From positions 7,808,587 to 7,872,586 of the forward strand of contig CM120648.1 in NCBI GenBank assembly GCA_051362555.1: 64,000 nucleotides of DNA. The letters run 5' to 3'. The position numbers and the translations under genes were made by a program. This stretch comes from Lingula anatina (taxonomy: Eukaryota > Animalia > Brachiopoda). The notes beneath the pieces were generated by a model. It was not told where the DNA came from. It ran no database searches and saw nothing but the letters and a program-made list of their open reading frames with translations. Shown here one piece after another: positions 31 to 52,525 of the stretch. Position 1 is the stretch's first letter; every line of letters begins with the position of its first letter.

Positions 31-1809
31 TACAACCACACACAACTGACCCTGTTACATGTATATATATTCCGTTATTCCAGGTCTCCAAGCTAATGTC
101 ACTGATTTACCTAATCACATCCCTTTAACATTGGCACGCTTGAGAGGCGGGAGAGACAATAACAGTAAGTGTTGTTTTAAATAAGTTTGACAATAAAGGG
201 TGTAAATTTTATACCAAAGGCTTCATACTGTAAGATGTAACATTATTCTTCTCTTTAATTCTGTACATTTGTTTCTCCTTAATGCAACATGTACATAGGG
301 TTGTCATTTTTAATAAATTCTAAAGGAGACGCTAAATATTTGGATTATTTCAAAGAATCAAAAGCTTGAGAAGTGCAAATGAACAGAAAATGGGAGGAGG
401 GCTTTGCCAGAAAAGACAAAAATATGTGAAAGGTGGTTAGCTTTAGAGACAAGCGCGTTGACCCGTTTTTTTATAAGGAAACAGTAAATCTAATGGTATG
501 TGCTCCTTTAGGAACAGCACTTGTTTTCAAGAGGGCTCATAAGCCATAAAAAAGGCTTGCAATACAAACTACTAAATCATGGACAGTATTTATGAGAAGA
601 TTCAAGTAAACTTCGTCTTCAATGCAATAAATTTGTAATGTAAAAATGATCCAAATCATTTACTAGCGAAAGAATATGATATAAGAAACGCCAACGGAAG
701 TATTGGCTATGCACCCTTATTAATAAGCTTCAGATGCAGTTACATGTAGAGTCAATTTCAAAGACATGCTATTGTCTTGTTATATATTTAAGTTTTATGT
801 TTTAGTTCTAACGTGGGATGACGGTAATGATAAAATCCTTCGTGGGGATGTCAAGTATAACAAATCCGAAAAGTGCCTAAGAGTGGAGCGAGAGGGGCAC
901 TTTCTCGTGTACAGCCAGCTCTGTGTGAGCGTTCCCAGTACTACTACTAGTTCAGCTGTGCATTTTACTCAAGCAATCCAGATAAGAATTCCATCCGGCT
1001 GGCACAGTGTGCTTTATAAGGAACTTAGTGTGCAGCGAGGCCATATTGATTGCATATATGTGTCAGGAATAGTGCACCTCGTCAAAGACGACTGCGTCAA
1101 AGTTGATTTTTCAGATGAAGAGTTAATCAGTAGCAACCAGGAGTACAATTCGTTTGGTTTGTACATGCTGGCATGAACCAGTCGTTCTCAATGCCTGTGA
1201 GGCCTTTATTTTTATTAGTAACGATGTTAATACAGTAAGTGACATTTCCGGGGACTTCACTGTGTTTCATTGTCAGTAAATGAGAAAATCAATGACTTCT
1301 TAAAACACATGCATTGTGCTTGTTCCCCAGTATGACAGTTAAAGAAAGACGACTATTTAATAAATGCCCATGTTTTTAGCTAATATTTTAATATTTAAAA
1401 ATTTTACGAATCCATATAGACCCAGAGATTCAAACAAAATTCATTATGCCCCCATGTAGAAATATGTCTCATATTGGTTAGGTATAGCATCTTATTGTAT
1501 ATAGTATACATGTTCTGTGTTTTACTGTCTTCCAATACAAATGTATTAGCATTCGCTAATATTGCGTGACCTCAGGCCACTGATTGGTCAGTAACCTTAG
1601 CTTGTTCAAGAATTGTTTTTCATAAAAACGGTATATTGCTACCATGCAGTACAAATTGCCTTGCTTTAAATTAATCGTCAGTACATTGAAAATATTTTAA
1701 TTGTTAAAATCCATTTTCTGTTTTATTTTTTATGTTTTTCCATTGATAAAAAGGAGATGTGCATTGCCAATGACATGTACTATGCTGTATCAATAAAACG
1801 TAGATTATT
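31..1809 (+). repeat. Segmental duplicate of 51229-53130 (ligand exons, intron and 3'UTR)
   Basis: Colinear high similarity by eye through the intron and 3'UTR. Similarity ends just after atcAATAAAacg(t/c)agattatt in both copies. Confidence 0.95.
84..1176 (+). CDS. TNF superfamily ligand, paralog A (last two exons only; 5' part lies left of the window)
   Basis: Exons 84-164 (cag|GT...AAC A|gtaagt; GLQANVTDLPNHIPLTLARLRGGRDNN) and 806-1176 (ttttag|TT CTA ACG TGG...TGA), both phase 1. TNF homology domain motifs: LARL strand A, LTW, LRVEREGHFLVYSQL, IYVSGIVHL, NSFGLYML. AATAAA near 1793. Confidence 0.92.
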
Positions 1810-5189: not shown

Positions 5190-8100
5190 TTATGAATCAT
5201 TGCTGGCCCTTCCTGTGAAAACGGGTACATATTTACAAAGTACAGTATATGCTCACCAGTTTCTGCGTGCATTTTAATCTTGTTAAATTAGGAAAAAAAG
5301 GGACATCTGCAAAGCACTTTTCAACCAAAGAAAAATGTGACTACGTATTTGGCATTGCATCTGTATTTTGTTAATTTGTTTTGTTATGAACCATGATCCT
5401 TTGCGTTCAGAGGAAATCAAGTGACTTACCTTTTAATTGATCAACAAGGTCCTGATAACCTGCTTGTGATAAGCACGTATGAAACAACTGACGCGTAAGA
5501 GGGTCCCTTTTGTCCTTTATAACGTTCTGTAGTGCTTTAATTGCAGTGCTTCTGATTTTTTTCCGGAAAGGCACATGTCTTACTAACGGGAACTTATCAG
5601 GTTCTCGTTCCTCGATCTCCGTCAAATCTCTCAGTATATCGCCTTGAGGATTTAAAAATGAAAACACTGATAGAACATGTTAGCACTAGTACAAGACTGA
5701 TATTTACAGACTAATTCTGCTCAATGCTAGCATGGATACTACATGTTAATACATTTTTGTTTATGGGAACTAAATAGATTTTTCCAGTTAATGATATTAT
5801 TGCCTATTTTAAACATTCGTTTTCAATTCATAATTATAATGCAAATGTAACGTATTCAGTCCAAAGCACTTTCACATATACAGGGTTAATACTTAATATG
5901 GATTATTTTTATCATGGTTATTTTTGAGTGCTGATTAAATATTTTTTGGCTTGATTCATAAAAAAAGTATGTCACTAAGTGATAAAAACATCCAGTTTTC
6001 TGTTGTGAGATATTTTGGTCCCCAAACAGAGACGTTACCACCCCCCTGCTTCCACCCTAGGCAGTACACAATCATCGTTTTATGCCTCTCGTACACGTCG
6101 GCAGACACGGAATCGACCGTCCACCCCAAAAATTCCATATCTGACCTCATCACTGAAAACGAAGTGATTCCAGTGTTTTGGCTGCAAACGCACGTGGTCC
6201 CCAGCCCATTGCAAACGTCGCTGTATATGACCTGCTGTTAACAGTGGTTTCCGTACTGGTCTTCGTGAAAAATAACCGGTTTGCAGTAATCTCTTGTTCA
6301 CGAGGGACCTTGAAACGGGCTTTTCTGAGCTGGTTGTCTTTGTACGACCAGCACGGATCACTCTAAGGAGAAGGCGATCCTGTCTTCTTGGTGTGACACG
6401 CGGACACTATGGTGGAAGTGTTGGAGTAGGTGCCCCTGTTGTAGCATTTCTTTGGAGGACTTTACTAACGGTTCCTGAAAAATGTGGAATTGTCTGGCAA
6501 TGGCTGTCGGTTTCTGGTCATTTCCTCTGAGAGCAAGAATCCCACAGTAAGCTGCGTTGCTTAGCTGTCGAACCACATCTTCTCTAAGGTATCTGTCAAG
6601 TTTCAGAGCGATCCCTTTGTTGCTTCTCTAAATACACTCCAAAGATTGACCAAACCCATGCGTTTTTATACAAGGGCAGAAATTGCCAAAAAGACAACCC
6701 CTCACATTTCTGACCAAAGAACATGCAACTGCATGCATTAATTGTTTCGAGAGCTGTGTAGTAATTAGGTAACACACCTGGCTACACATGGAGTGACACC
6801 TCAGTTTTGGATTTAAAAAAAGTAAGAGAAAAATTAATTATTTTGTAGAAAATTTAATTGCCAAAAATAATAATCCATATTAAGTAGTAACCCTGTATAT
6901 ATTTCATCCGCACAGTAGGTCGCACTTAACAGATGTTTCAGCAATAACAAAATGTGCATTAGACAGATAGTTTGAACATACAATAAACATCAGTTTAAAA
7001 GATATGATATGAGAACGCCCCTATGAACATAAGGTGAATGTAAAAAACTAGTTTAGCCGGTCGCACTTCTCTTACCTTTTCCATCCGCTTGTACTAGTCT
7101 AAGATCAACTGAAACAAAACATCACATGGATACATACACAAAGCTTTGAATATGTGAAATAAGTTAGTGGTGCTGCATGGTTATTTTTTTCTGGATTTCT
7201 GTAAACCATCCCCAAACAAAACTGTAAGTCTCTTTTATATATTTTTAAACATATAAGTAAAACATCGTTTAACTAACACATTATTACCCGTACAGTATTA
7301 TCTACCATTACTATTTAGTTCTTTACTATAATGATGCCTTATACTGAAACATTATACATGTAGCAGCACTTATCAGGTGTTTCAGCAATGACAGAATGTG
7401 CAAGAAACAGTTCTTAAGTATAAAAACAACGTAATTAGAACGTCCCTATAAACAAAAAAAGGTAATTTTACTAGAACACTTATTCATTATATAAAGAATA
7501 ATAATTACCAACTAGAGAAATGGCAATGCATCAATTGTATTGTATCGTCATTAGTATATCATATTGTACAAGGTCATGACAATCTATGTACCAGTACAGA
7601 AATAAATTGAATATAAACAACAAGTGGACATTAGAACTAGTTCAGCCAGTCGCACTTCCCTCACCTCCCCCTGACACCTGTTGGTTTTTTCCATTCAGAT
7701 CTGAAACAAACAGTACTGACATTTATAAGGAAATATATAAAATATCTGAAAAGAACAAATCATGAATAACGAAGAATGGAAGTACTCATACGTAAATGTA
7801 GATGAATGCACCCCTTATCTAATTTAGACAATGACTAATGAAAAAGTAACATATATTTTGATGGACTGATAGAAAAGAAAATGTTGACATTTTATAAAGG
7901 TAAACGCATTTTTAAAAACCTCCGGGTAAGAAACCTCCTTTACCGAGGCGTGCAGTCCCAAACACTAGAGATTTGGACTTAAAGTGCAATCTAAAATCAG
8001 TATTGAACTGACGCGGTCTTAAAGATTAAGTAAGCAGTCTTTGTTTTCCCTAAAGACTAAAAAGGAACAAAAATTTCAGAGAGTAAAGCTATTAATCCTG

Positions 8101-11100
8101 ACATGTCTTATCTAAAAATAAATGTTTTTCATTGCTTTTGAAGCTATATTTCTAAGCTCTAATATCAAAACATTAACAGTATGCTTCACTTGCACATCTA
8201 AGTCTTTGCTTGTTTTAGGAGTTGTCTGAGATAGTTCTGGTCTTAAAGACGCACCAGTGAAAGTAGCATGGAGAAATTTAAGATGAATAAAAAAGTAAAA
8301 GAGGAAATCTCTCTCCCCCTCTCTCACTCTCTCTCTCTCTCTTTCAAAGACACTCGCGCATGATACGTTACTTACTGTCATTAAAGATTCTTGTATAAGT
8401 ATTGTTTAGCCATAGTTTTATATCTTCTTGCGTCAAAAATTTTTTCTCCATAAATGTGGTCACCAATTTCCAGTCAAAAGCAGACTGTGCCAACCATCTG
8501 ATGTCTTCCAACGGATCGTCTGAAACAATTTTAATCAGAATGTATTTGCAACTTACTTATTTAATATAGACACTGCATTGCACTATAAACTGAAAAGGTA
8601 TTTTATCCGTTCAAAGAAATATATGATCAAAATTAAGAGCTGGAAATAAAATGAATCTTATTTATAGAATGATGTATAGATATCTGAACTCTCTTTCTAC
8701 CGATACAATCTATACTCCCTTAACAAAATTTAGTGTGACTCCTATCATATTTATGTACATTGTTTCAAAGGTACCCTTACATTTAATATTACTATTGCAT
8801 AGCAACTAGGCAACCGATCATGGCTTATATTGGGGATGTGAACTTTAAAACATTAACCTACCTAGAATGACTATTGAAGAACACCAACATCAAGTATTTA
8901 CAGTATAATATGCGGCTCCTAAGCTAGTGGGATACATATTTCACCAAGCGGTTGACATGGAGGGGGGGGCACCGAATCCCCAGAAAGTCGGGTTGTTTCA
9001 TGCGACCCATACAGATGGTTAGACAACATTATAACCAAACAGGCACATAGGCGGGCTACCTGGGAAAGGCAGGCTACCTGGGAAAGGAATACCATAGGAA
9101 AACACACAGAGAGAAGAAATGGTGTCAATATGCTTCCTTAGGATCTTGACTGCAACACCAGGAACTGTCTACGTTGTATTGGGATTCTGGCAAGGACACC
9201 AGCTAACAACTGTGCAATGATACTGTTCTCAGATGAAAGCAGGTTAAACGTTGTGAGGAGTGATGGACGCGTAGGTGTCTGGAGAAGAGATGCTTTGAAG
9301 TAACTTCCAAATGTTTTGCCTCTGTTCAGCAGGATCAACCCCCATAAATCACGGTATGGGGTGTAGTGGCTACTGTGGTGTAGGCGAGCGGGATGTGATC
9401 AAGAAATCCCAAAGAAAGGCAATAAAACCAAGCACTGGAGAGGAACTTGCAGAATTTTGTATACAATGTTTTGGGGACCATGACCATTCATTTATGTCTC
9501 AGCTTGATAATGCTTGTCCACGTTCAGCTAATGCAACAGTAAGCTGGTTATATGCATGGGCATTATGAGAGAAATGTCCATGTTATATGCTAACCAGTTC
9601 CAGATCCCTAAATGACGAGCTCAATATCTAGATCAGAACCTCATTCAGGATGTGTAGAATTTCACAGAAAATGGGTTACTTAGGATATATCCTGCAAAAA
9701 AAATTCCCCACCCTACCTTGTGCCGTATAAAGAACGCCAACACTCCGCAAACGCTACAGACCTTTGACTCTATACACAGGCTTGTCAAGTTCATTCTCTA
9801 ATCTAGAGAGTACTGTGCAAAATCTTTAAAAGTATCTTTGGCTTTTTACTATGTTTACATTGTTCAATGATTGTACAATCAATTAAATTTTATAAAAAAA
9901 AAACTGAACAAAAACATTGGCTTAGAGCACGATTCTCTTTACTGTATTTAACACATTGCATTATATCTGAGACTTTTTTAGTTAGGGGAGTATACAGTGA
10001 AACAGACATAAACAACTTAAATTTCAGTACCAAAGAAACAGAATGGGCGAGCTACCAGTTTCACAACGACAACAGTGAAGTTTCTACACCCAACTGAATG
10101 CCTACTCATATGTTGAAAGGTCTTACATTGCATAAAAATATTTACTAGGATATGAAGACCAATAGCAGTGTTTTGAGCAATTTAATGAGAGTGGCCAACA
10201 TTGTGACATACTGCCATCGGATGCATAGGAAATGCTGTCCATTATACATTTCGCCTACATGTTAAAGCCCCCGTCACACTTATTCGGAATCAACAGGAAT
10301 CCATCGGGACCAGTTGGAATGACTCAATTAAAAATTTGTACTACGTTCGCGAAGAAATTTCTAATTGGCCTAAATTGTAATTGTAATTGTGAGGATGCCT
10401 TTGGAATACTCAGAATGCTCTTGAATCCGCTTGGAATGATTCGTGCACATTTCGGCTGTATTGGCTCTCAAATACAGCCCTATAGGTGGAAAACTAGGAA
10501 TATCTATAGTGCTGTCAGAATGCAGTCAGAATATTTAGAATTCACTTCGAATGCCGTACGAGTGTAGTTCGATTGCTGGCTGAAATAGGATTGAGATGCA
10601 TTCGAGTTGCGTTTTGGCTCATCTGTCTCTAGCAGGATTTGAAGTGTATTGCCATTTTGGTTCTCCCTCAAATGTGATCAGAATGTTTCGAATGCTGTCG
10701 GAATGCCGTGAGAATGTTTAGAATGCAGGCATAGTGCAATTAAAATACTATTCACATGCCATTCGATAATTTTCCACTTTGAATGCACTTCGAAAGACTT
10801 TAACATGAGCAAAACATTCGGGCCGGCCACAAGAATGGATAGAAATATTTGGAATGCACTTGGAATTCTTAGAATGCTCTTCGAATATCCAGGAACGCAC
10901 AAAGAACTGTCTTTTCAACGGCATTCTTGCTCATTCCGCCTCTAGTGTGGAGGAGGTACAGGTATAACAAATGAACTGTATTTGTTAAGAAAAAAAAACG
11001 AAGAGGCTAACTGTCATTCATCAAACTAACATTAAAAAGGCAGGCATTCAAATGTTTTTTAAGTTGGCTTGGGCAACTGGTAAGGGCATGGAACTTCACT

Positions 11101-14100
11101 GGAAAAGGTTTGTATTAACATAACTAAAATTATAAGAAAATAACTAGTATGTCTCTAGAAAATATGTTGTCTATTCCTTGCAGAATTTTTCGTAGCCGTC
11201 TTTTTAATAGATATGGTAAATACAAACCTTGTGCGTTTTCATGCCGGTCATTGCCTAAAAGAAAGAGTAAAATCGTGAACATTTTATTGAACATTTATTG
11301 AAGGGAAAACAAACCATCCAACAGTGTGCATAACGTGGAGCGGTGAAATATGAACAATATGGCCTTGCCTTCTCACTACCTCATATGCAATGATTTGCAC
11401 GTGGAAATACGTATTGTTGTTTAAATTAATAAACAAAATTAATATGCAAATTTCTGTACATTCCGACATCCAGTTTAGATTGTTGCAATTTCCCAATTCT
11501 GAAGCACAACACAAATTCTTTACATTTTCTATATTTAGAAGGCACATGAATGAATGATATAGATTTGTACAACAACGCAATATGCCGGTAATACATCCTT
11601 AATCTGTGGAACCTTAATCTGTGGTTTATTATACCATCGAATGCTGGATGTGGTGTCGATAGAGTAACTTACTTAGTAATCTGCTAGCTAAGTCACCATA
11701 CGCGGAATTGGTCAAACAATCTAAAAGGGTCGTACGGTTAGGTTTGTCAGATTTGCTCCTTAAAATTTCCTTTAATACATCAATAGCAGTACGTCTAATG
11801 ATATACAGCTCATCCGGTTTCGCAATGCAGTCCATAGTTTTTCCCAATGGAAACCGTCCAGGTATTCCCTTGCTTGCTTCCAGATCATTGATCAACTCTG
11901 AATATATTTTGAAATACAAACATAAATAGGACATGTTGACATTTTTTTCAGCTATGTGGAAATGTGAATTTTGATATAGCAACTTATATAATCAACACGA
12001 CGTATTTACATATTTAAAGTTCACTATTAAGTTATTAGTGAAGACTAATGGTACTTATTCAGTTGAACGTACTGAACCCACCTTCTGTTTGGGCGTCTGC
12101 TTCCAGTAAATTCCGCTGATCTGAAATTAAAGAGAATGTAACATTTAGTAGTTTAAAGTACTTATCTTTTATCAGCCGTGTCTAGAACACAATTTATTAT
12201 TTTATAAAATGTTTTATAGAGGTTAAACACATAATTAAGTCGGGTGACCAAGGTTCGTTAGTATCGTGTGAAAGCTCATTTAGTCAGGAGTCAGATTAGG
12301 CCACACTTTTTTAGTTTTATGGATGACATCCTGCGCGCCCACCGATTTTCGTCCGTTCTCCGAAAAAAAACACCCCCAATGAAGTCGGTTGTCGCAAACG
12401 TCGTTATTGAATTTGCCGGTAAATAACCTTTTTGCTCATGCGTATTATCGCCACGTGGGAATATGGCCGCTTTGCCGTCAAATTCATCTCTAGGATTACT
12501 TTCAAATTACACGACAATTAAAGTTCTAAAGAGAACGGGGCCGTGGTTTTGGATTGATATGCCATTGAAATTGGGCATGGAGATATCACCTCTTTACAAC
12601 CATACGAAAGGCTGACGGCGGCCAGTGATTATCGCCCGGGAAATTTCAGTGACATTCTGTCCAAAGCAGCACATACCAGGCTTTTTTTCTTGTAGTTAAA
12701 AAAAGGGTCGACAGGGGCGTCGAGGTATTTGGTGGTCTGAAAGTTGGACAGGCCACCCGACAGTTTGGCTGCTTCGCGTGAATCGAAGTAGACAAAATGG
12801 CATCGGCCAAATTGAACTTTAATAGATTTGGTAGTATTAAGCATAGGCCCCCTATATATATATATATCTTTGCATAATTTTTTTACATTTCTGTGAAGTG
12901 TTCATAAGGCTTTAATATGCTGAGAGTACAAATTAGGACACACTGTTTGTTTGATATGTGTTTTATTGGTTGCTATGCCAACAAAATGCATGAAATAACC
13001 TTAAATAGATTTGGTAATATGCAGCATATCTAATCGTGGTTTTTTTACCTTTCTACGAAGCATTCACATTTCTTTAATATTTTGAGAGCATGGATTAAGA
13101 CATATTGTTAGTTTGACACGTGTTACTGTGGTCATTATGTGTTTCCAGCTGTGTACTGACAGTATACTAGTATACCTTTACTAAAGCAGTATTTTTGGAC
13201 TGTTTTTTATTCGCCCTCTCGCACCAATTTCGGGGTCCCCATAGGATGTCATCCATAAAAATAAAAAAGTGTGGCCTTATGTTTGTAGAAGTTTCAAACC
13301 AGTAGCTTTCACTATCATGTAAATGGTCATTATATAACACCAAGCAGCTTTACAAATGGGTTTTAAAATGGGGGTAGGAAAAAACATCCGCATTATGATA
13401 ATTAAATAAGATAAATCAATGAATAACATTTCAGTATCTAGCTGAATGATTGCTTGCTTTATATTCAGTAATACAATTATGCACCAATCAATCGCATATA
13501 ATCAAATATGGACAGATGTCATCTGAGGTCAAATTTGAGGCATTTGTAGGGCCAATACACCAATAGAGATTATTTTTAAAAAGAAAATGTAAATCAATAA
13601 TTATATACATAAATAGGACATGCTGACATTTTTTAGCTACTTGAAAATGTGAATTTTGATATAGCAACTTGTATAATCAACACGAAGTACATACATATTT
13701 AAAGTTCACTATTAAGTCATAAGTGAAGACAAATAGTACTAATTCTGTTGAACTTTATGCACCCACCTTCTGCTTGGCGGTTTGCTTCCGGTAAATCCAG
13801 TTGAACTGAAATAAAAGAGAATGTTACATTTAGTATTTTAAAGTACTTAACTTTTATCAGTTGTGTCTAGAACATAATGAAATGTTTTTTTCACAGATTG
13901 AACACATAATTAAGTTGGATGACCAAGGTTCATTGACATCATGTGAAAGCTAATTTACATGTAGTTACAAGCCTGAATATGTATGTACTACTTGCAAACC
14001 AGTAGCTTTCACTATGTAAAGGGTCATTATATAACACCAAGTGGCTTTAAATGCATTTTAAAAATAGGGGTAGGAAAAAACATCCGCATTGTGAGAATTA

Positions 14101-17100
14101 AATAAGATATAGCAATGAATAACATTTCAATATCTACAAGGTAGCTGAATGATCGCTTGCTTTATATTCAGTAATACAATTAAATACCAATCAATCGCAT
14201 GTAATCAAATATGGTCAGACGTCATCTGAGGTCAAATTTGAGGGATTTGTGGGGCAATACACCAATAAAGTTTTGTTTTAAAAAGAAAATGTAAATCAAT
14301 ATTTTTCTGGTAATGTTCGATGAATGTTGCCTATACATTGTAAAACGGTCTTAAATGAGTGTTTTTAGAAAATAGGAGTAGAAGAAAGGTAATCGGTAAT
14401 TTGCAATATGTTGGTTTGGACAGGAAGCCCATGGCACTAGTTGAATGTCAAAGGTTTACTGAAGCACATTTTGCCTGGTGGAAGTTACAAACCAACTTTT
14501 TCAGACTTTTGAAATATATAAGCACACTGTGCGTGACCTGAACAAACTTTAGAGAAAATTTGGAAAACAAACAAAAATAACTTTACCGTTTCATTATTAA
14601 TCGATCAATCACTAATAAGCAGATAGTAAATATTAAGTATAATTTCTAAAAATAACCATTCATTAAATCCTGAGTTATATTTACAATTTTAATAATTTGT
14701 ATAAATCAATCAATATTGTAACATCCAAAACTAACACAAATAAACAATATTGCACACACTAAAATATAAAGCATTTTGATAAAGCATTTGGTGCTTCATT
14801 TTGTGGTCAGCTGTCTAAAGTGAATGAAGGATGTGATTTCAACTACGGATGATAATATGCTAAACGATTTCCCATCAGTTAGTGGAGACATGATATGCTG
14901 TTTACTAAGGTATTTATAACTTTGTCACTTACTGAAATATTTATACAAGAACGAAAGGTAACACAGAATACATTTTTGTTGGTTCTGTTTTGTTTTAGTC
15001 TGAGTTAATGGCATTGATATATTTATTTAAGAAAAATATTTTAATAAGCATAAAAATGCTTACATTTTATGAATGAGAATTGACACATTATTTTCATCGT
15101 TCTATACTAAATCATTTAATTGTACCTTGATCAAGAAATAATGTTACAAGTGTAACTGAGACAGTCTTATTTAAACTACAAAAACAAATACTGCATGGAA
15201 TACCTAATTTTCCAACTTTTTTTTTTTGAGAAGGGATCTGCTGATTATTATGCTATATAAATTTATGTTGTTACTGGAACATTTAAGAAAATGAAGCTAC
15301 AATAAGATATGTATGTTTAGTCTTAGTTATTGACATCATTAAAGAATTCCAGTATAGGCTTAATGATGTCATATTGCCACCTAATATGCAATAATTACGG
15401 AGAGGCAAGGTACAACAAGCCGTGCTACAAACACTACACTAGCATTAAAGTACCCAAAACAACACTTGTACCTGAATCTGACAGTGAAAGCATATACAAA
15501 GTTGCTGAGACTGATGCTCATGAGCAACTCTTTCAGTGCATACGACAAGAGTTGTTTTCCCCTCCCTGGGTTAATTGTGTTACTCAAATATCTTGTCCGT
15601 CAAATGTGTACCCTATACAACATTGGTCAAAAAGGTTGTCCCACCCCATTTAGTAAAATTTATAAGAGGTACCCCCTCAAATCGACTGTTTCACTGTGAC
15701 TTCTACAGATGTAAAGAAATGTCTATAAAATTGAAAAGGCGCCATCACATGTCACCAAATTCACACACAATTAGCATTAGGGTGTGCTCGTTAAAGGTCA
15801 CGTGCCGAACAGCGTGTGCGTCTACCGCGTACTGCAATTATCTCCTGTAGACGGCGCGACAAGCCTTCAACACGGGTTACAATTCAATAGTGGTTCAGAT
15901 GCAAGGTGTTATATGGTCATTTACAAAGTGAAAGCAACTGATTTGAAACTGCTATCACACATAATCTGACATCTGACTAAATGAGCTTTCATATAAATGC
16001 AATGAACCTTGATCGCCCAATTGGTATCGGCGGATCAAAATTGAGGAGTCTAACTGAAAGACTAAAGCTCATGTTCATAACTCTTTTCTATCCTATCAGC
16101 GAATCAGAAGTCACACATAAATCCCTAAATTACACTAGGTTACGTTGAACATGCTTCAGAGTATTCCAGAAAAACACTACAGTTTCATAAAGCACTTGGG
16201 TGTTGTTACATGGTTTTTCTGCAATATTGCAAATCAATTTGATACTGACGAACCGTGTTGGCTGTTTTATCTACAGGAGGGTTTGCTTTGCATAATGTTG
16301 CTTAAAGATGAATGACAGATATACTGTATGAAAATTTGGTCAAGTGAATGAATTTACTGCAGTTTTACAGACCAGGAATTTACCCTTACTTAAGCAATAT
16401 TGACACGTCAGTATCAATGGGGTATAGTCACATGACCCAAAAATAGTCACCAGATTCCGCATCCCTCAGAAAGCCAATATTTTGACATTTGTTGTTTTGT
16501 TTTGTTGTTTTGTGAGCTCCCGTACCTTTACCAAGGTAGCAACTTGACCGCCATTAATGCGATCACACCATTTGAATTGTAATTACAGTACAATGTGAGA
16601 AACCCCATCACTTGTTGTGCTGCAATTAAGCCATAAAGCAAAATGTTGGATATGAAGGCAAATCCTTATTGTCCTAGAATTATGTACTTCTTGAATGTTT
16701 TGGCTGACTAAGGAATTAATTTGATTTATCACTTTGTAAGTCAACTTTATGAAAGGAAATTCATCTATTTTTATTTACTGTAAATTTACCAGAGTGCCCA
16801 AGATATGCAGGATACTTTTAAGTCTCTCTTTCTCTCTCATTACTCACACTTCGTACATATCTTTTCAAATGTGTCTTTTATCCATTTGCCTGTATCTTCT
16901 TTTGACAAGAGTCCATTTTCAAAGTTTCCGATCAATTTCCTGTCTAACACAAAGGCCCCCAGCAATTTGAGAATTTCCCCTGAAATAAATGCATTACACT
17001 GATTATAGGACAATCCCCCCAGAAACATCTATTTATACACAAATATAAAGTAAAAAGTGTGAAGTTTAAAACATTTCATCCATTTTATTAATATTTTCAG

Positions 17101-26100: not shown

Positions 26101-29100
26101 ATGGAGTATTGATTTCATGGGTAAACAAGAGTGACTGGCATAATTTGTCCTTGTCTCATCTTTCGGTTGCGTTCAAAATATCACCAAACCTAAAAATGAT
26201 AAAATTAAATTAGTGAATTTTTTTTACTGTTCTTTTCACTTTGTATTTCAAATGCAAAATGAAATTGTACATTCATAGCATTAAAGTTTGACCTTCAAAC
26301 CATGATATATCATCTCACAACTTGTATTTCAGTATTATAATGCAACTTCAGGTACATATAGTAGCTCAAGCTACGACATGATATTGATACAAGACATTTG
26401 AACAAGTGAAAAACTAGCAAACTTATTTTCATTTGCACACTTACCTCAATGCTGTTATTCTCCATGATCTTTCTTCATGCCACACTCCACTTTGACTTTG
26501 GCCTCTAGTTCTGTTTTCAAGTTCTGACACTTCCTTCTCTGTGGCCTACCAACATCAATGCAAGGTTATGAGGGAGTGAAAAAAACAATGATGCTAACAA
26601 AACGATGCTAACATACTTGGCAAACACTGTTTTGATTGTCTACCTCATCTACACTTAGTTATGTCAACTGTCATTGACATAAAACACGCATCAACCCTTG
26701 TTTCTCCTATACAATTTTGCGTTGACACAAGTCATGTGTTAAATGTCGGACCTGGTACACGAAATTTGATTACCGAAACGAACGGTCCTTTATCGACTAG
26801 GAGTGCCTACAATAAACGTATTTTAAACATAAATACCTTCATTGTATTCTCGAAATATGGAAATATGCAATGACAATATCATTATCTTGAAATAAAGTTA
26901 TAAATTAGGCATATAAGTAGTGCGGAACTAGCCGCCGCTTACACCTGGCTTTTGACAGGGAGCTCACACAGAAACCCATATTTTACGGGAAGATCCGAGC
27001 GCGAAACCTTCAATGTTAGTGATACAATTGACACATTTATAAGTAAATACACTAACCTTTCTACTAAATCCTGTTTCAACTAGTTGAAGTTTTAATTTCG
27101 CCACCGTTTGCTTCCCATACTCTAAAGCCATTTCTACACGGACGCGAAAACGAGGCTATCTTCAATAACCACTATTACCCCAGCGCCCTCTTTAGGACAA
27201 ACGGCTCCGCGTATAGCCCCATTCTGTTTTGTGGGATATTGTCCCATTCATCTTAAACAAGCTGGGGGAGTTGGTCCGCGTTTTTATTGGGTTGGTTCTC
27301 CTTTGCATTGCACACTCCAATTCATCTCACAGTTGATTAGTAAGTTTAATATCAGGGCTCAAAGATGGTGGTTCCATCCTTAGACTATTGTGTTTCTTCA
27401 ACAAACACTTGCCAGGCGAGAGATATGAGGAGTTAACCCCAAAGTCAGGTCTTGAAGATGGAATGAGATATCAGCTAAGAATGCTACGTTCAGTGATCCC
27501 ACAGGCACCTGAACCTGGCCATCCATCACTGGAAGGAAGGTGTGTGTAGGGTAATATCGCCTGAGGTGTTAGATCAATCCGCATTTGGAGAACATTCCAA
27601 GCCCATGGTATTAGTACATTGTTCCTTCTGGAACAAAACGTAACAGGGGCATTTTAATGTAACATTCTCAACATAAATCTCACTCCATTTGCAAGAGGTG
27701 ACTTCAGGGATGCTACTGGGTTCATTGTGACAACGCACTTGCTCACCGCTCTCATCTGGCAAACGATTTGTTGCAGAAACACAGGGCTCTGAGGATGGGA
27801 CAACCGTTTTGAGTCCTGATATTAATCCTACTGTGCACCTGTGACATAAATTGGAATGTGCATTGCAGAGAAGAACCAATTCCTAAATAATCTTGACCAA
27901 TTCCGCCACGCCCTTTAGGATGAATGGGACAATATCCCACACAACAGAATTGTTACCTATGTTGAAGGCTTGTCGCGCCGTCTACAGGAGATAATTGCAG
28001 TACGCGGTAGACGCACACGCTGTTAGGCACGTGATCTTTAACGAGAACACCCTAATGCTAATTGTGTGTGAATTTGGTGACAATTGATGGCGTCTTTTCA
28101 ATTTTATAGACGTTTCTATACATCTGTAGAAGTCACAGTGAAACAGTCGATTTGAGGGGGTACCTCTTTTAAATTTTACTAAATGGTATAAAATATGTAT
28201 ATTTCACCACTATTTTGTATTTTTTTTAACCATGTATCATGTTAGACACGGTATCCGTAATAAAAAGCACTATTTCTAACAATTTACACCTGTAAGGTGA
28301 TCATTTGTAAATAAAAGCACATGGAGAGGGGGGTGGGACAACCTTTTTGACCAATGTTGTATATTATTGCTAAAGCATACAGGTATAATACAATGAAAGA
28401 ACATTATGGTTCAGCAAACAGGACAATTATTTGTAGAGTCAGTTCATAATTAATAGACTTGAAGAAGGAATTGCAAAAGCAACACATAAATACTGTGATA
28501 TTTACAATGTCAAGAATATGCAGAGAAAATGTGCAAACCACGGTATATCAACAAATACTACATTGTATATAGCCACAGGACAAAACAGCAAGTACGATCG
28601 ACCTCTATATATCTCTGTTGTGCAGTTGGGAAGTACTCACGTTGTGCCTCACTTAATGCGTTCTTGTGACTCTCTGTATAAAGACAGAAATGTAAAAAAT
28701 ACGCAGTGCCTCAAATGTATACATACATTATTTATGTATTACTTTATACATACAAAATTTACAATAAAACTGGCATATACAAGGAACTGCAAAAGCAACA
28801 CATCAATTCAGTGATATATACAAATATAAATGAATATACAAAATAATCACAATATTCGCAGAAGTTAAAAAGCGTTATAAAGAAAATAATAATACATGTA
28901 TATTAATGGATCTGATGTAAGTATGCGTTTCTACAGTCAAATGACTATGGAGGATAAACGAAATTTAATACACAAGATCATTCGTAAAGGTAATGGATAC
29001 CCACCTTTAGTCATGAATTTAAATGGAAATGTGTATTTTTCTGGAAAAGAATACATTTCCGTTAATATATAAAGCACTGAGAACACTTTACGCCTTTAAC

Positions 29101-32100
29101 GCATTTCAATGCACAGCTGTTTCTGATGTCATGCAGGAGTGTAAAACATTGATAAAAAGTTCTCTCACTGATATGCTTAAAGATTTTATGATTATTTAAA
29201 ACCTGCATTAATAGAACATGGAGTCGACAAATAAAGGTGTGCACTTTAGCTTAGTTATAACTTTTTTCGATCAAAAAATACTGAATAAAATTAAATTGAA
29301 AAAAAAACTGATTATGTTGTTGTTATTTGAGAGAGGAAGAGAGGAAAAGGAAGTAAATTGAATACCATTTAAACAGGAATACATTGCCTGTACGTCAAAA
29401 GTACGACCGCACACGAACCAATGCAACGTTCGTTGTTGCATAGACAGTGGGAATATACAATGACAAATATACTGCATAAGATCCAATGATATGTATTTGT
29501 GAAATGTGTGTTTTTGCGACAATTTCGTTAACATAAATTAGAGTTTATAAACATTTACTTACTGTAACGCCAACAGTAGTAAATCCATAGGATGAACAAC
29601 ACAACAAAAACTAAAAAAGACAAAATATAAAATAGACTAAATAATGCTTTTATAGCCGACTGTTTGCTTTAATAATTAACTGTTATTTAAGTAAATATAT
29701 GAAATGTTGCGATTAGGAAAATTTCATATCTAAACCATTTACAAAATTAAATATGTAATATTTTTAAAATCTTTTGGATTATAGTACTGGGACCTTTGAA
29801 ACCATTTTGATAGATACAATGCAAATGTAAGTTCCTCGTGCTGTTTCACACCGAAAACTTACAAACACCAATACTAAAAGCAATCCCAATACCAATCCCA
29901 ATCCATATTTTGTAGTCAGTAGGTTCGCTGAAAAAAAGAAAATTTGTGATCAGATGTGATAACAAGGTTTATCAGTATTTGATACATCTGCTGAGAAATA
30001 AATGCTACGATTACACCCAGCTCTCACAAATAATCCGGCCCCCAGCAGTTAAGGAAATATACATGGTTAAGACAGAATGGTCCAAGATATCGAATATTCA
30101 TCACCATTTTTGTTTGTTCCTAATTTAATATAATAAAATATTTTATGGGCTTTGCGTACAATGAATATTTTCTTCTACAAAAATAAAAGTAATTGCATTT
30201 CATTTCGGTCATATCCTTTAGCAAAGGTCCCATGTCCAGTATGTGACGTACATTTATATGCATTTTGGTGTCAAAACGCCAAAGACGGTTTCAAAGTTTT
30301 CGTATAATTTACCATTAAAATTATTGTACAACCTGGTCAAAGAACTTAAACGCCATTTTCTTTGAATTGCTCTTACCTTTGGTTTTATCTCTATGTGCAT
30401 AAATGACATGAAATAATAACTGCAAAGAGCTAGATCACAAATTACAGATACCGTATTGTAATTTATACATATTCAACAAGTATGAATTTCCATGATGATC
30501 AAATGGACAGGTACATGTACATGTTATGAGAGGTCTTTCAGAGCGACACGGCTAACTCTGTTGGGGTGTGAATTCAGCGTAACAAAACCTTTCAAACAGG
30601 TTAGGGGCTCGGCACGTTAAAAAGGCCTATAGTTGGAAACAAAGATCTCCCCGTTCCCTTATGAGAAATACTGATCTTAAGAATTCATTGAATATAACAT
30701 CCTTTAAAGCACGCCGCCCCTTTTATGCTTATTCACCACCCCATCTGCTTTTGCACATAAGGTGACCAATTGTTGTTAATATTTGTAGCCAAATTTCGTT
30801 GGTTTGTAGTATGGCGTGAGAAATAGATCGGCCTCTGACGTAACTCCGTAACTAAATTAGATATTGTCATGAAAATCGGCATGGTTGAGGAACTTGGTGT
30901 AAACGATCATTTGCACTGGTGCCAGCGTTTGGATTTAATTCTTTTGTGTAGAAGATACCCCCCTCTTATCAAGACATTCCATTAAACAAAGGCATTATAT
31001 TTCGTTTCTTTGCTGATAAAATTGAAAGTAAACATTTCAAAAGAATGTCCTGGCACCAGATTGTAGTAACTGATGCTCTGAATAAAATGGTGTTTAAACG
31101 TTTTTTGTTGTTGGGATATCTGTTAAGAATCGATGTTATCAATTTGCACCCAAAACGCTTCTCAAATTCACACCGATGTATTTCTGATGCGACTGCATTA
31201 CATAACAAGACACTAATTTCCACATTATCCAAGCAGACAAAGAAAATTTTTAAGTATCGAGCTCCCTTGAAAAACATGACATAATGGCTGCCATTGTGTG
31301 TGAATGACTGACATTTAATCTTTATATCTATTATGACGTTAATGTACAACTTTTACGCGGTTTGCTTCGGGCTGTGACCCTTGCACGACCTCGTAACGAC
31401 AACGGAAATTATGTAAATCCCACTGTTTTGGCTGTTTTCTGCGTTTGTCTGAAAAGTTGAAATATTAATAAACTATATACCTACCAACAATTAGGGTTAG
31501 GAAACGGCTTGCAGTGTTTTTCTTCGTCGAAATGCTCAACATATTGGCCATTCTCTGAAGCAAAAAATGTGAAAATAACCCAAGTGTATGTAAGTTATCC
31601 TTAGCTATTAATTATCATTATCCATTTGAACATATTATGAGAAATCAAAGAAACAAACAAATAAATAAATAAATGTTATGAACAACTGACGCATGTGTAA
31701 ATCTTTCCCTCTGTCTAAGACTAGTAGTAAGAGATATCGCCAACACTTGAATGTGCATAAAGTTGTTACACAGACAGACGATAATCAAGTAAAAACGTTT
31801 GATAAATAAATAACATGCTTACTGTCTTTTATGTGAGGGTAAGTTCCCTCTGGGCATTTTTTGCAATGACAAAATTCGTTTTCCTTCCGACATCGCTTCG
31901 GTCTTTCTGGTGCAAAACGCTTGCACTCGTTACACCAGCATTTGTTATCCTAAATAATAATAATAATGATAATAATAATAATAATAATGTACATTCTGAA
32001 ATCCATCATATTCAATAGACTTAAAGGTACATACAAACTGAGCATCTGAGGAGCATGGATTCCCAGTAACACATGTAAACCACTTCTACTAGTTTCTTAT

Positions 32101-35100
32101 ATGACTCAAATAAATTCGACATGAAAAGGGATAAAGTGAATAGATCACTCGATCAGCTATAAAAGAGCTTTAGACTGCTCCTTTCTTTAAATTTTTGGTT
32201 GGAAATTTAACCTACTTTTGTGACCTACTTTTCTACCCCATTGACATACAGCATAGGATGCTAGCAGAAAAATCCGTTCAAACATCATTTTCAGGTAAAA
32301 TTAAACAATGCCTTTTGGTAATTCTCTTAATTATACTACTTGAAACTATATGCTGGCATTTGGTTGATTTTTGTGACAAAAAATTGACTTCGTATGCATC
32401 TCTAACAATGAAAATACAAATACATATTACAAAAAAAAAGAAAAACAAATTGATTAAAAAACAAAATGATGTACTCTAGAAAGAAAATAATTGTTTTACG
32501 ATATAATAAAGGCAAGAATAAGGCGGGGCAAATTTGAATTATTTGATGATAAAAGTGATGACCCTCACCATTAAAGCACATAATGCAAATAAAACTAGTA
32601 AGTCAATGATTTAATGTGAGGCGATTTCACGCGAGAAATTTTACGTGTGCATATGGTCACTGTACCACACATTCATAGCGGGCATCGCCCTTAGAGCTTT
32701 GGATCTACCAGTACCCCCCCCCCCCCCCCCCCCCCATCTTCCGGGTCACTGCCCACTCCCTCCTCCAGAAAACAGTATATCGAACAAAACGAGACAAATC
32801 AAGCAGTGTCCCTACTATACATATTACAGTAAGATTACGTTTGTGCCGCTTCATTTGGCTTTTTTGCCATTTAGCATCCTCTGTCTTTCCTTAATTACAA
32901 AGGAATGACCTGCCAGTGTATATTTGAGACATTTTAGATTTAGATTTTTACCTTAGACAAACCATGTTCAAATCGTTTTGATTTAATAATAATAACATTT
33001 ATTTCTTAAAAACCGGACTACACTACTGTCTCAGTGCTGTTTACAAATAAAATTCTCAGAATTACAAGTAATATATAAACAGTTAAAGCTGAGGTAAATA
33101 AAACAATCAAATCGATTATTGCTGGTTATAACAGTAATAGTCTAAACAATAAATCATTTTTCTGATAAAATGAGAAAATATAGAATATCAAGTATTAAAT
33201 TTTAATTGAAGTACTGTGCAAATAAGAGCGTTTTCAAGTCTTTTTTAAAAACCTCAACACTATCAATAGTCCGAATGTGTTAGGGAAGTTCATTCCATAA
33301 AATGGGTGCTACAATATTGAAAATGCCCTGTGGCCTTTTTTTGTCATTTCTGGCAAAGCAAAGAGTGGAGGTGGACCTGGTGGACCTGGTGAGATTGGCT
33401 GAACTTGGATTTAGCATAGAGTTAAAATATGAAGGGCATTCCCCTCTGGTGAATTTAAAAGCAAGCAGCAGTAATTTGAAAACAATTCTCTGTCATAAAG
33501 CCAATGTAGTTCGAATAAAATAGGTGAAATGTTTGATCCGAGAGGGGTTAATTTTGGTCAGTAGTCGTACTGCAGCAATTTGGACAGATTACAGTTTTTC
33601 AATTTGGTAGGTAGGAAGACCTTACAGTAGAATGTTTCCGTAGTCAAGATGTGAAGTTATGAAGGCATGGACAAGCCTCTGCATTTGACCTTTGGGATAT
33701 GGGATAATCTGGAGATTTTTTAAGACCATAGACTTGCATTTTTACTGATGTCGGCGGCCATATCGCACCTATTATCAAATATTACTCCTAGGTTTTTAAC
33801 CTCGTCTTTTCTTGTGACCATGCTGTTGCCGATTTCTAATAGTTCTAATTTTTCTGCAGCTAGAGATAGATGAACTACTTCTGTTTTGTCATAATTGAAA
33901 ACAAGTGAATTGGCGTTAAACCATGAACTCAACTAACTTATTCATTTCTGGATAGATGGTATCACATCTGATGGCCTGTCACAAACAACATAAATTTGTG
34001 AGTCATCTGCATAGAGCATTTGGTTGAAACTTTACTTGGTGACTTGTAAAGAGTTTACAGGATGGGGCCGAGTAAACAGCCTTGTGTACATGCCAGAAAC
34101 TAGTATAAGAGAACTTACAAGAACGAAACTAGAATCACAAGATTTAATTACAAATAACCAATTAATCATAAGATCTACCTTACAATATACATTCTTGTAT
34201 TTGGACAGGGCTAATTTCAGAGCAATCTTAATTCATTGAATCCATAAAAAAAAATAATAATAATAAAATAAAAAGTTTAAAGGATCATATACACAGGTTT
34301 TATGTTATCAGTATGCATTACAGATAACGTAACACTCTATAAGAGATTTTGTTTAATTTAAAATTCAGAACAAGGCAATTTCTTGCATAAAAGGGTACAA
34401 TCATTCAGATTAACAAGAAATTAATGTAAAGTTCGAACAGTTAAAACTGAATGTTTTAACAAATATCCCTTTTACTTTTTAAAGGGAAACCGATTAATTT
34501 TAATATACAGGTACAGAGCTTAACCCTAAATTTATTTTAAAGATGCTATAGTCAAAACTAAACACTTTAAGAACTTTTATAAATTATGTTTTAAATTAAG
34601 ACTCCATCATTAGAGCATTAATTAAGAAAATATTTAGTTTGATATCTTTATAAAGTTAATAAAGTTTTATTTTCTTGTAACTTTCAGCTTCGAAATGCAA
34701 TTCGACTGAATAAAATATCATTATCATATCATTATTAAAATATTGCTATGCTGTTAGAAAATTTAGCATCTGATATATCACAAACAAAAAAAATTAATTA
34801 TTAAAATAATAATGACTTGTAAATTGTGAAGGACAAGTTGAATATACATACATGTATGAGTCTTAACTTCAAACGTACACCAGCCAACATATGCTCAAAA
34901 CACTGCAATTACCTGTGTCATATTTCCAGCTCGATAGATATATTGCCCTTCACTTTCCGCGCACGATTGCAGTTCCTCACATTCCTTTCCGTCAATAATA
35001 CGTGCTCCTGAAAAGGAATACAAAAAAGGAGAGTAAGATGTGACATATGCTACACACAAACACTCTTGCTGCAGCCACGTCTTGTCCATAATTTGATCAA

Positions 35101-35758
35101 TCTTACAAACGACAGGCCAATAAATAAATGAAAACTAAATGAAAACTAAAAACTAAATGTCGGCATCAAGGTTTTTCAAATGAGATGTTTTAATGTTCGA
35201 TGAATTGAGATAGAAAAATAGTTTTGCAGGACATGTAGACAAGGAAAATAAGCACAATAATGCCCGTGGATTTCATACAGACCTTTAGGTTTCCAATCTG
35301 TGCAAAATATTATATGAAGATCACGTGTTCCTATGTGCCATCCATGATCTTCTTATTATATCAATGCGATCAGATTATCAAATGATTAAGGGACTTGTAC
35401 AAAGATGAAAACGGTTTACCTGCACAACAAGTGTCGTTACATGGCCATGCAGACCCAAATCCAGCAATGTCAGCTGTTAGAACCTTTCAATGCAAAAAAT
35501 AAAAAAGATATTATTATTATTAGTATTACATATATGTCATTTGAACAAACAATGGCAGCGACCACACTAATAGGAAGAATCGCACACAAGTTTAAGAGAG
35601 AGCCCTGTTTATTTAGCAAAATTGACGTACATGTAGGTGTAAGCACCCCGACTGTTTGTCTGTAAGACCTTTCATCAAGCAGCTTTGATATATAACTTTT
35701 GCACATATCATAAGATAGAGAAAGCTCTACTTACCGTATAGAAATATAGAAAGAGCAT
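5190..35758 (-). CDS. TNF-receptor-superfamily type I membrane protein with two tandem death-domain-like repeats (about 490 aa, 19 coding exons)
   Basis: Phase-consistent GT-AG exons (minus): 35758-35735, 35483-35420, 35007-34913, 31949-31823, 31554-31485, 29927-29863, 29610-29563, 29040-29005, 28673-28641, 16979-16848, 13805-13767, 12120-12082, 11897-11673, 11254-11228, 8519-8376, 7700-7665, 7108-7076, 5642-5430, 5212-5190; total 1473 nt, open. Protein: signal-like MLFLYFYTVLTADIAGFGSA; Cys-rich WPCNDTCCAG..CEELQSCAESEGQYIYRAGNMTQDNKCWCNEC..CHCKKCPEGTY..HCKPFPNPNCC; TM IWIGIGIGIAFSIGVFFVVLFILWIYYCW then RYKK; two homologous cytoplasmic repeats ending TLLDCLTNSAYGDLASRLL and LFHTCLSQAGYQDLVDQLK. 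The start codon (35758 vs in-frame 35812) and individual micro-exons are less certain than the overall model. Confidence 0.85.
5430..8519 (-). CDS. Death-domain-like repeat 2 exons of the receptor
   Basis: 8519-8376 (DIRWLAQSAFDWKLVTTFMEKKFLTQEDIKLWL), micro-exons 7700-7665 and 7108-7076, and 5642-5430 (IRSTAIKALQNVI..LTRQLFHTCLSQAGYQDLVDQLK). Confidence 0.78.
5881..6895 (-). mobile_element. Tc1/mariner element, internally deleted, frameshifted transposase
   Basis: TIRs CAGGGTTA(A/C)TACTTAATATGGATTATT with TA TSD. Transposase remnant RRPVRKPLLT..HIQRRLQWA..WNHFVFSDE..DGRFRVCRR..GGGNVSVWG. Confidence 0.93.
8308..8342. repeat. (CT/GA)n microsatellite
   Basis: tctctctccccctctctcactctctctctctctct. 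Confidence 0.8.
8713..9992 (+). mobile_element. Degenerate Tc1/mariner element
   Basis: TIR TACTCCC(T/C)TAAC with TA flanks. Remnants LFSDESRLNVVRSDGRVGVWRR (about 9223-9290) and QLDNACPRSA. Confidence 0.8.
10266..10957. mobile_element. Probable Harbinger-like non-autonomous element with dispersed GAATGC/GCATTC motifs
   Basis: Begins AGCCCCCGTCACACT and ends TAGTGTGGAGGAGG. Many gaatgc repeats inside; TSD not resolved. Confidence 0.4.
11673..16979 (-). CDS. Death-domain-like repeat 1 exons of the receptor
   Basis: 16979-16848 (EILKLLGAFVLDRKLIGNFENGLLSKEDTGKWIKDTF), micro-exons 13805-13767 and 12120-12082, and 11897-11673 (IRRTAIDVLKEIL..NRTTLLDCLTNSAYGDLASRLL). Confidence 0.75.
11919..14300. 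repeat. Tandem duplication of an intronic unit of about 700 bp carrying a 39-nt micro-exon
   Basis: Unit 1 is 11919-13600 (interrupted by MITE 12299-13276) and unit 2 is 13607-14300. Both start acataaataggacatg and end aaagaaaatgtaaatcaata. Confidence 0.9.
12299..13276. mobile_element. Zator/Harbinger-type non-autonomous element, copy 1
   Basis: TIR GGCCACACTTTTTTA.TTTTATGGATGACATCC with TTA TSD on both sides. Inverted copy at 42774-43748. Confidence 0.88.
15618..15885 (-). mobile_element. Solo, internally deleted arm of the Tc1-derived element at 18316-28359
   Basis: TA|CAACATTGGTCAAAAAGGTTGTCCCAC...; matches 18316-18724 apart from an internal deletion. Confidence 0.85.
17302..17514. repeat. 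Degenerate tandem duplication, unit about 120 bp
   Basis: aagcaattaaaagt...ctggat(a/g)agtgaga...atctgtttaccccacct...ttgatc occurs twice. Confidence 0.7.
19083..22879 (+). mobile_element. Sola3-like DNA transposon, degenerate
   Basis: TTAA TSD on both sides. TIR GTGTGTGTCCACGAGAAAACC / GGTTCTCTCGTGGACAAGCTC (GAG-type terminus). Broken Cys-rich ORF from 19851 (CNRDINSHL..ESKLILVRCGFF..VPLGSG|gt). The Sola3 label rests on recalled family features. Confidence 0.72.
24273..24631. mobile_element. Kolobok-like TTAA MITE, copy 1
   Basis: TTAA|AGATGCATAC...ATATGTACCT|TTAA. Inverted copy at 32025-32401. Confidence 0.8.
25385..25432. repeat. (GT)n/(GC)n alternating purine-pyrimidine tract
   Basis: gtgtgtgtgtgtatgtgtgtgcgcgcgtgcgtgcgcgcgcgtgtgtgtg. 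Confidence 0.85.
29563..29927 (-). CDS. Transmembrane exons of the receptor
   Basis: 29927-29863 (EPTDYKIWIGIGIGIAFSIGV) and 29610-29563 (FFVVLFILWIYYCWRY). Both have gtaagt donors and T-rich acceptors. Confidence 0.85.
31485..35483 (-). CDS. TNFR-type cysteine-rich ectodomain exons of the receptor
   Basis: Exons 35483-35420, 35007-34913, 31949-31823 and 31554-31485. GNxTxDNxC and CxxCPEGTY are TNFR CRD signatures. Confidence 0.85.
32025..32401. mobile_element. Kolobok-like TTAA MITE, copy 2
   Basis: TTAA|AGGTACATAC...GTATGCATCT|CTAA; reverse-complement homolog of 24273-24631. Confidence 0.78.
32985..34025 (-). mobile_element. 5'-truncated L2/CR1-group LINE (RT C-terminus and 3' tail)
   Basis: MLYADDSQIY, SWFNANSLVFNYDKTEV, VKNLGVIFD, VHAFITSHLDYGNILL, RAFSIVAPILWNELP with stops and frameshifts. 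Ends in a (TTA)n tail. Confidence 0.92.
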
Positions 35759-51700: not shown

Positions 51701-52525
51701 TAATGATATGTGCTGCTTTAGGAACAGCATTTGTTTTCAAGAGGGCTCATATGCCATAAAAAAAGGCTTGCAATACAAACTACTAAATCATGAACAGTAT
51801 TTATGAGAAGAGTCAACTAAACTGCGTCTTCAATAAAATAAAATTTAAAAAAGAGGCGGATCAGAAAAACTGAAAAATAAAAACTTTTTTCTCATCATAC
51901 ACGCTGCATAATTGATATTTTATCTTCAACTAGTTTGTTTCACTGATAACCTTCTATTGTACTTAGATACACGAATGAAACGTGTAAAATACCAACATAA
52001 CTTCTGTGATGTAAAAATGATCCAAATCATTTACTAGCGAAAGAATATGATATAAGAAACGCCAACGGAAGTGAAGTATTGGCTATGCATATGCAGTTAC
52101 ATGTAGAGTCAATTTCAAAGACATTTTATTGTCTTGTTATATATTAGTTTTATATTTTAGTTCTAACGTGGAATGACGGTCGGGATTTAATCCTCCAGGG
52201 AGACGTCCAGTATGAAAACACCGAAAAGTGCCTAAGAGTGAAGCGAGAGGGGCACTTTCTCGTGTACAGCCAGCTGTGTCTATTCGTCCCCAGTACTAAT
52301 TCAGCTGTGCATTTTACTCAATCAATCCAGAGAAGAATTTCAACCGGCTGGCACCGCGTGCTTTATAAGAAACTGAGTGTGCAACGAGGCCATACTGATT
52401 GCACCTATGTGTCAGGAATAGTGCACCTCTACGAAAAAGACTGCGTCAAAGTTGATTTTTCAGATGAAGAGTTTATCATTAACAACCCTCAGTACAATTC
52501 GTTTGGTTTGTACATGCTGGCATGA
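48710..52525 (+). CDS. TNF superfamily ligand, paralog B: type II membrane protein, 377 aa, 5 exons
   Basis: Exons 48710-49201, 49810-49885, 50458-50562, 51282-51377, 52161-52525 (1134 nt, phases 0,1,1,1, all GT-AG). Cytoplasmic tail, TM YLMVIFAMCCLQMIAIVVLGAAI after RRWR, helical stalk, C-terminal TNF homology domain (LRVKREGHFLVYSQL..YVSGIVHL..NSFGLYML). Confidence 0.93.

Follow-up and report, generated by a model that had tools for sequence, protein, structure and literature searches.

A TNF-receptor-like gene of Lingula anatina whose tandemly repeated tail may hold split, CARD-like death folds

What kind of domain forms the tail of a TNF receptor when that tail consists of one exon cassette in two copies, each apparently cut in half? 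The question is raised by a gene on the minus strand (35758-5190) of a 64,000-nucleotide stretch of DNA from the brachiopod Lingula anatina (contig CM120648.1 of assembly GCA_051362555.1), here called the window. The window is AT-rich, eukaryotic DNA, and two TNF-ligand genes on the plus strand lie on the flanks of the receptor gene. The product of this gene is a TNF-receptor-like protein with one membrane pass, and its tail is a tandem duplicate of one exon cassette. Residue patterns suggest that both repeats probably belong to the death-fold superfamily, whatever their class, a call that is plausible but unproven. The explanation of the tail that we prefer, and hold tentatively, is a pair of tandem split CARD-like death folds that would scaffold adaptors or caspases.

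Organization of the receptor tail

A first-pass annotation of this locus placed eight exons of the tail on the minus strand, all in phase 1, and each of them has canonical AG and GT ends and a length divisible by three. That inventory overlooked a ninth tail micro-exon (j2, 11254-11228) and the last coding exon (5212-5190). In the order of transcription, the tail exons are as follows:

16848..16979 (-): N1, N half of repeat 1, putative helices 1-3; homologous to N2, with a CARD pattern and RNA depth in its bin in 4/4 runs
13767..13805 (-): m1, a micro-exon related to m2 by recent duplication (85% identity with flanks), possibly skipped (its bin has zero depth)
12082..12120 (-): m2, micro-exon in the repeat 1 insert; spliced to C1 in RNA of run X7, from a diverged copy
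11673..11897 (-): C1, remaining insert and putative helices 4-6 of repeat 1; homologous to C2, both junctions in RNA
11228..11254 (-): j2, linker micro-exon of 27 nt that separates the two repeats; a 30-nt form in RNA aligns to this site, which has AG and GT ends
8376..8519 (-): N2, N half of repeat 2; ungapped CARD pattern 9/10 and a modelled hairpin
7665..7700 (-): m3, micro-exon in the repeat 2 insert; splice sites and frame, no RNA joint listed
7076..7108 (-): m4, micro-exon in the repeat 2 insert, older duplicate of m3 with like downstream introns; no RNA joint listed
5430..5642 (-): C2, remaining insert and putative helices 4-6 of repeat 2; modelled helices with mean pLDDT 61
5190..5212 (-): last coding exon with the stop codon, predicted

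The annotation had also described two homologous blocks with the same exon layout, and alignment bears this out. N1 and N2 share 13/40 residues and C1 and C2 share 23/67, with scores that 0/2000 shuffles reach in each case. None of the four N-versus-C exon pairs rises above chance, and the remaining large-exon pairs are likewise at chance level. The repeats span 145 and 142 residues. Their duplication is an old event, because dS exceeds 1 (1.06 and 1.22, with dN/dS of 0.53 and 0.59) and the flanking introns align only at shuffle level; the duplicated exons themselves reach scores of 38 and 32, against shuffle maxima of 30 and 31. The micro-exons duplicated separately inside each repeat, recently for m1/m2 and earlier for m3/m4. 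The DNA of m1 and m2 is 85% identical, introns included, and the two exons differ chiefly at amino-acid-changing sites (dN 0.31 and dS 0.13, from 12 codons only). A third variant of the m1/m2 type occurs in RNA reads, and the hinge sequence evolves fast.

Each N half is separated from its C half by an insert whose micro-exon-encoded segment is mostly polar. The distance from the putative helix-3 Trp to the start of helix 4 is 73 residues in repeat 1 and 66 in repeat 2, as against 8 residues by an eye count in a Lingula caspase CARD. In CARD register the inserts are therefore about 65 and 58 residues long (52 in repeat 1 without m1), which revises the 45-55 residues proposed earlier to about 58-65. 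The segment preceding helix 4 is conserved between the repeats and partly helical by prediction. A P-x-x-F-P motif lies in the insert part of both C exons (11845-11870 and 5585-5615, minus strand). A similar motif is found in the linkers that follow the CARD of Lingula caspase-Y, which may reflect chance or a shared binding motif.

Death-fold patterns in the repeat halves

The helix motifs quoted in the first-pass annotation are present in the sequence, and we compared the halves with residue-class patterns for two classes of death fold. The CARD pattern was derived from five Lingula caspase-Y CARDs (PMC11463336), and a death domain (DD) pattern was set beside it. Both were composed after the sequences were known, so that the shuffle counts given next overstate significance. 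N1 fits the CARD pattern at 8.5/10 with one deletion (4/1500 shuffles reach this score) and the DD pattern at 6.5/10 (234/1500). N2 fits the CARD pattern at 9/10 without gaps (0/1500) and the DD pattern at 7.5/10 (33/1500). For C1 the values are 8.5/11 for CARD (30/1500) and 10.5/15 for DD (2/1500), and for C2 they are 8.5/11 (20/1500) and 8.5/15 (70/1500). The CARD helix 4-6 pattern is matched at 9 of its 11 positions in both C halves, and in unrelated windows it reaches the C1 score in 174/1500 cases and the C2 score in 150/1500. The four C-half fits all fall on one homologous residue. Taken together, the halves seem to have death-fold spacing in the correct order, with N halves that are CARD-like and C halves that are ambiguous.

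Direct comparison with caspase CARDs is consistent with this pattern. N2 can be aligned by eye and free of gaps with helix 2, the loop and helix 3 of Lingula caspase-Y CARDs, and the end of C2 matches helices 4-6 of Casp.Y4 at 11/39 identical residues with one gap, also by eye; significance was not computed for either alignment. The core spacing of CARD helix 2-loop-helix 3, as a post-hoc pattern, is present in both N1 and N2. The annotation's report that helix 4 of both repeats and helix 2 of repeat 1 lack the conserved DD tryptophan holds true, and the helix-2 Trp of N2 lies 3 residues off register. If the fold is CARD-like, these absences may be expected because it would have no Trp there: the five Lingula caspase-Y CARDs have none at the positions where a DD has its helix-2 and helix-4 Trp. 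Of the earlier proposal of two split death domains, the tandem repeats in a receptor tail and the split helical halves thus stand, and membership of the death-fold superfamily is plausible. A DD in the strict sense is weaker for the N halves, which the CARD pattern fits better.

Transcript support

Raw reads from six of the nine RNA runs for the species label (X1, X3, X4, X7, X8 and X9, 6-30% of each) were mapped to the region from N1 to the last exon, a range that ends short of the juxtamembrane-N1 junction and all upstream exons. Depth over the tail exons is low, at about 1-3. In run X7, C1 is joined at the predicted splice site to a micro-exon resembling m2 (4 reads at 92% likeness and 5 at 80%, with 2 starts), and three reads of run X8 with three starts carry a C1-to-N2 joint through a 30-nt exon. 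The 27-nt genomic counterpart of this exon is j2, with AG/GT ends and a local score of 36 (maximum 32 in 300 shuffles). Both repeats sit in one spliced mRNA, and the gene, or a close copy of it, is transcribed and spliced. The reads diverge from the window sequence in the micro-exons, and they are therefore assigned to a diverged allele or paralogue.

The annotation had proposed that cDNA should join the halves of each repeat, and this is borne out in part. Three of the nine junctions between N1 and the last exon are seen in RNA, including m2-C1 and C1-j2-N2, all from the diverged copy; the joint of an N exon to a micro-exon is unseen, with 0 reads in six runs at this depth. No joint that skips directly from an N to a C exon is listed from the six runs, and a depth of about 1-3 still permits skipping. 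The bin that contains m1 has zero depth in every run. Because of this, and because m1 and m2 are recent duplicates, the mRNA of repeat 1 may have a single micro-exon.

Fold searches and competing explanations

Several observations weigh against CARD-like death folds, along with the post-hoc origin of the patterns and the N-to-micro-exon joint that is missing from the reads. The helix 3-4 loop of a CARD is short, and the repeats, with 73 and 66 residues there, depart from this. Every unbiased search was blank, and the family and fold searches used single exons or half models, each about half a domain. In Pfam, single tail exons gave no match, and none to Death (PF00531) even at E values up to 10. 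A homologue search with C1 gave 33 candidates with 0 at E 0.01, PDB sequence searches with tail pieces found zero death folds, and Foldseek searches of the N2 and C2 half models against the PDB found none at E 0.001.

Other searches were similarly unproductive. Foldseek with the C2 half model against a viral library gave none at E 0.001, and a VIA structure search brought up generic hairpins for N2, the 50 matches listed containing no death fold. More generally, no death domain is among the matches listed for the half models. In the ESM Atlas, the best score for C2 is 0.86, without a Pfam lead, and N2 has no usable match. HMMER was run against 1.84 billion representatives with the C-half profile, and its 11 matches were discarded because their scores add up weak matches along repeat proteins, where no single stretch exceeds 22 bits. 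When bacterial genomes were searched for PF00531 to build a local profile, 0/3, 0/401 and 0/401 genomes passed the cut-off. AlphaFold2 (AF2) models N2 alone as a two-helix hairpin (pLDDT 88) and gives C2 helices at 26-42, 47-60 and 63-69 (mean pLDDT 61). A two-chain complex prediction of N2 and C2 without alignments scored 0.02, which is evidence neither way.

These blank searches would be natural if each repeat of about 143 residues were a different, lineage-specific helical domain, with the "insert" lying within the fold and the likeness to death folds due to chance amphipathic helices. The conserved and partly helical stretch before helix 4 points the same way, as does the length of the third helix of N2 (17 residues in the AF2 model). 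We nevertheless consider this domain unlikely: death-fold core spacing fits all four halves, in the right order and with matching registers, at the place where a TNF-receptor-like protein would carry a death fold, and the micro-exon part is polar and fast-changing. Similarly improbable are split death domains proper, which would have arisen from the DD that invertebrate receptors usually have in the tail and would engage FADD, CRADD or a RIP kinase by DD-DD contacts. Invertebrate TNF receptors, brachiopod ones included, commonly bear DDs (10.1101/2021.12.26.474206; 10.1101/2024.07.27.603686; PMC4346834), which gives this explanation a high prior, and FADD and CRADD are present in Lingula. C1 fits the DD pattern well and N2 does so moderately. 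However, the N1 fit is not above chance and the C2 fit is weak, the N2 Trp can be placed only with a 3-residue gap, the other tryptophans are gone, the single exons have no Pfam Death match, and the repeats are longer than a contiguous DD of about 80-90 residues.

The tail might also be a degenerate, non-signalling death fold in a receptor that acts on the adjacent TNF ligands as a decoy or dominant negative. Core residues are lost in both repeats, no TRAF motif was found when one was sought in the tail, and dN/dS is only moderately below 1. Osteoprotegerin offers a precedent, as a decoy with two death-domain-homologous regions (PMC4202272). On the other side, the frame of the whole model is intact, both repeats have been retained since their old duplication, and transcription and splicing are seen for the gene or a near copy of it, all of which makes a decoy very unlikely. 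Split CARD-like death folds thus remain our tentative choice.

A possible mechanism and its relation to known systems

In each CARD-leaning repeat, helices 1-3 and 4-6 would be parted by a mostly polar insert of about 60 residues. TNF receptors are generally clustered by their ligands, and a TNF-family ligand, perhaps the product of a flanking gene, would cluster this one. The clustered tails would then show two death folds per chain and could recruit a death-fold partner, as the lack of a TRAF motif suggests. With the insert at the helix 3/4 hinge, alternative helix pairings may be possible. In the most speculative part of the scheme, helices 4-6 could dock onto any of three sets of helices 1-3: the set in their own repeat, the set in the following repeat (N2 for C1, reached over the 9 residues of j2) or the set in an adjacent receptor. 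Closed tails would then turn, on clustering, into swapped assemblies able to signal. The most detailed version is a long shot: a TNF receptor that uses two CARDs instead of a DD, both with a micro-exon linker inserted at the helix 3/4 hinge used in swapping, with ligand-clustered tails that zip by swapping and nucleate CARD caspase-Y or CRADD, and with micro-exon splicing that tunes the length of the hinge.

Swapping of this kind has a structural parallel. The CARD-only protein of frog virus 3 and caspase-8 DED2 form dimers in which helices 4-6 of one chain pack on helices 1-3 of the other, and this division coincides with that between N and C exons here (PMC7156525). Those proteins have a short hinge within a contiguous domain, whereas a long micro-exon-encoded insert occupies the hinge here and swapping is putative. 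The receptor would be a natural test of whether helix 4-6 swapping, which has mostly been seen in crystals, can serve as a receptor switch.

No tandem, split or CARD-bearing TNF-receptor tail was found in the literature searched, which left most subscription journals outside its coverage, and the death folds of TNF-receptor tails described there are single contiguous DDs. A 2018 paper on the immune system of Lingula may describe these receptors. Like Fas, TNFR1, p75NTR and the invertebrate PITA-type receptors, the predicted protein has a signal peptide, a Cys-rich ectodomain, one membrane helix and a putative C-terminal death fold. It differs from death receptors in having two units rather than one, an interruption of about 60 residues in each, no DD tryptophans in register and N halves nearer to the CARD pattern. 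The earlier statement that TNF-receptor family members carry a single DD overlooks osteoprotegerin (TNFRSF11B), a secreted protein that likewise has two tandem death-domain-like regions (PMC4202272). Its regions are extracellular, whereas those described here follow the membrane helix and arose by local duplication of an exon cassette. Tandem-CARD sensors nucleate filaments. NOD2, RIG-I and MDA5 would share with this tail two CARD-type units per chain that could nucleate adaptor assembly (PMC3314614 for NOD2; PMC4346834 for a CARD-CARD arrangement in the setting of oyster RIG-I), but those sensors are cytosolic with contiguous N-terminal CARDs, and this is a surface receptor with split C-terminal units. 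Two death domains also occur in a sponge protein (PMC9798719). An amphioxus TNFR-caspase hybrid is another invertebrate TNF receptor with an unusual tail, one that shortcuts to caspase signalling by carrying a caspase (PMC2575513), whereas the tail here has no catalytic domain.

If the tandem, split, CARD-leaning tail is real, it would be a new wiring from TNF receptor to caspase. Lingula is reported to have FADD, CRADD, a DED caspase and six CARD caspase-Y paralogues, APAF-1 and caspase-2 being undetected, and its phylum is reported to lack the latter two and to have six CARD caspases with an activation route open (PMC11463336). In the long-shot version above, the tail would give CARD caspases a platform at a surface receptor, in a lineage without APAF-1. 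If the repeats are not death folds, this TNF receptor would carry a signalling domain that has so far escaped recognition.

Receptor exons upstream of the tail

The upstream part of the gene is modelled by eight exons and one further candidate:

35735..35758 (-): first coding exon, start of the signal peptide; ATG, hydrophobic run and GTAAGT donor, predicted
35420..35483 (-): end of the signal peptide and first cysteines; splice sites and frame
34913..35007 (-): Cys-rich ectodomain exon a; exon model
31823..31949 (-): Cys-rich ectodomain exon b, TNFR-like spacing; exon model, weak DR6 matches, no Pfam match
31485..31554 (-): Cys-rich ectodomain exon c; exon model
29863..29927 (-): stalk and first half of the membrane helix; hydropathy peak 2.8
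29563..29610 (-): second half of the membrane helix; exon model and hydropathy
29005..29040 (-): j0, candidate 36-nt juxtamembrane micro-exon, phase 1; splice-site scores alone, strong sites just inside the membrane
28641..28673 (-): j1, 33-nt juxtamembrane micro-exon, phase 1; predicted

Joined with the eight named tail exons and the last exon, the eight upstream exons form one open frame of 469 amino acids, which grows to 478 with j2 and to 490 with j0 as well. The encoded order is a hydrophobic leader, a Cys-rich ectodomain with 15 cysteines ahead of the membrane helix, one membrane helix and the two homologous repeats. The N-terminal leader and the single hydropathy peak of the exon model (the sole one above 1.6) agree with a type I membrane topology. 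Pfam gave a match for 0/3 ectodomain exons scanned singly, and a homologue search with exon b returned zero candidates. Against PDB sequences, exon b has weak matches to DR6 (TNFRSF21; E 1.0 and 1.8), and 13/15 rows are chance thioredoxin-fold matches.

Neighbouring genes and elements

The two ligand genes and the receptor form a linked ligand-receptor cluster:

790..1176 (+): TNF-ligand gene A, last exon, tail to tail with the receptor; PF00229, E 6.9e-10
52148..52525 (+): TNF-ligand gene B, last exon, on the 5' side of the receptor; PF00229, E 1.9e-10, paralogue of A

The paralogues (1-1790 and 51200-53100, plus strand) share DNA blocks that are 84-96% identical, introns included, and the 5' part of gene B, which has a likely membrane anchor, begins near 48710. 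Between ligand gene A and the receptor 3' end, a 157-codon Cys-containing open frame (2692-3162, plus strand) matches no family above the cut-off (ELLD, E 0.094). The 11.7-kb intron between j1 and N1 contains a THAP-like and Harbinger-type transposase remnant (18726-27100; HTH_Tnp_4, E 1.6e-08, at 25612-26040), and repeat copies lie at 15646-15892, 18313-18724 and 27940-28362.

Farther out, a RING-finger exon, a Cys-rich stretch and an interferon-inducible-GTPase exon (IIGP, E 2.5e-17) follow one another at 56591-59725 (plus strand) and are possibly one RING/B-box-IRG fusion gene. The 3' exons of an ABCG transporter occupy 61427-63225 (minus strand), and one of them, at 62983-63225, shares 97% identity with Lingula anatina ABCG27, as against 58-62% with the proteins of other animals.

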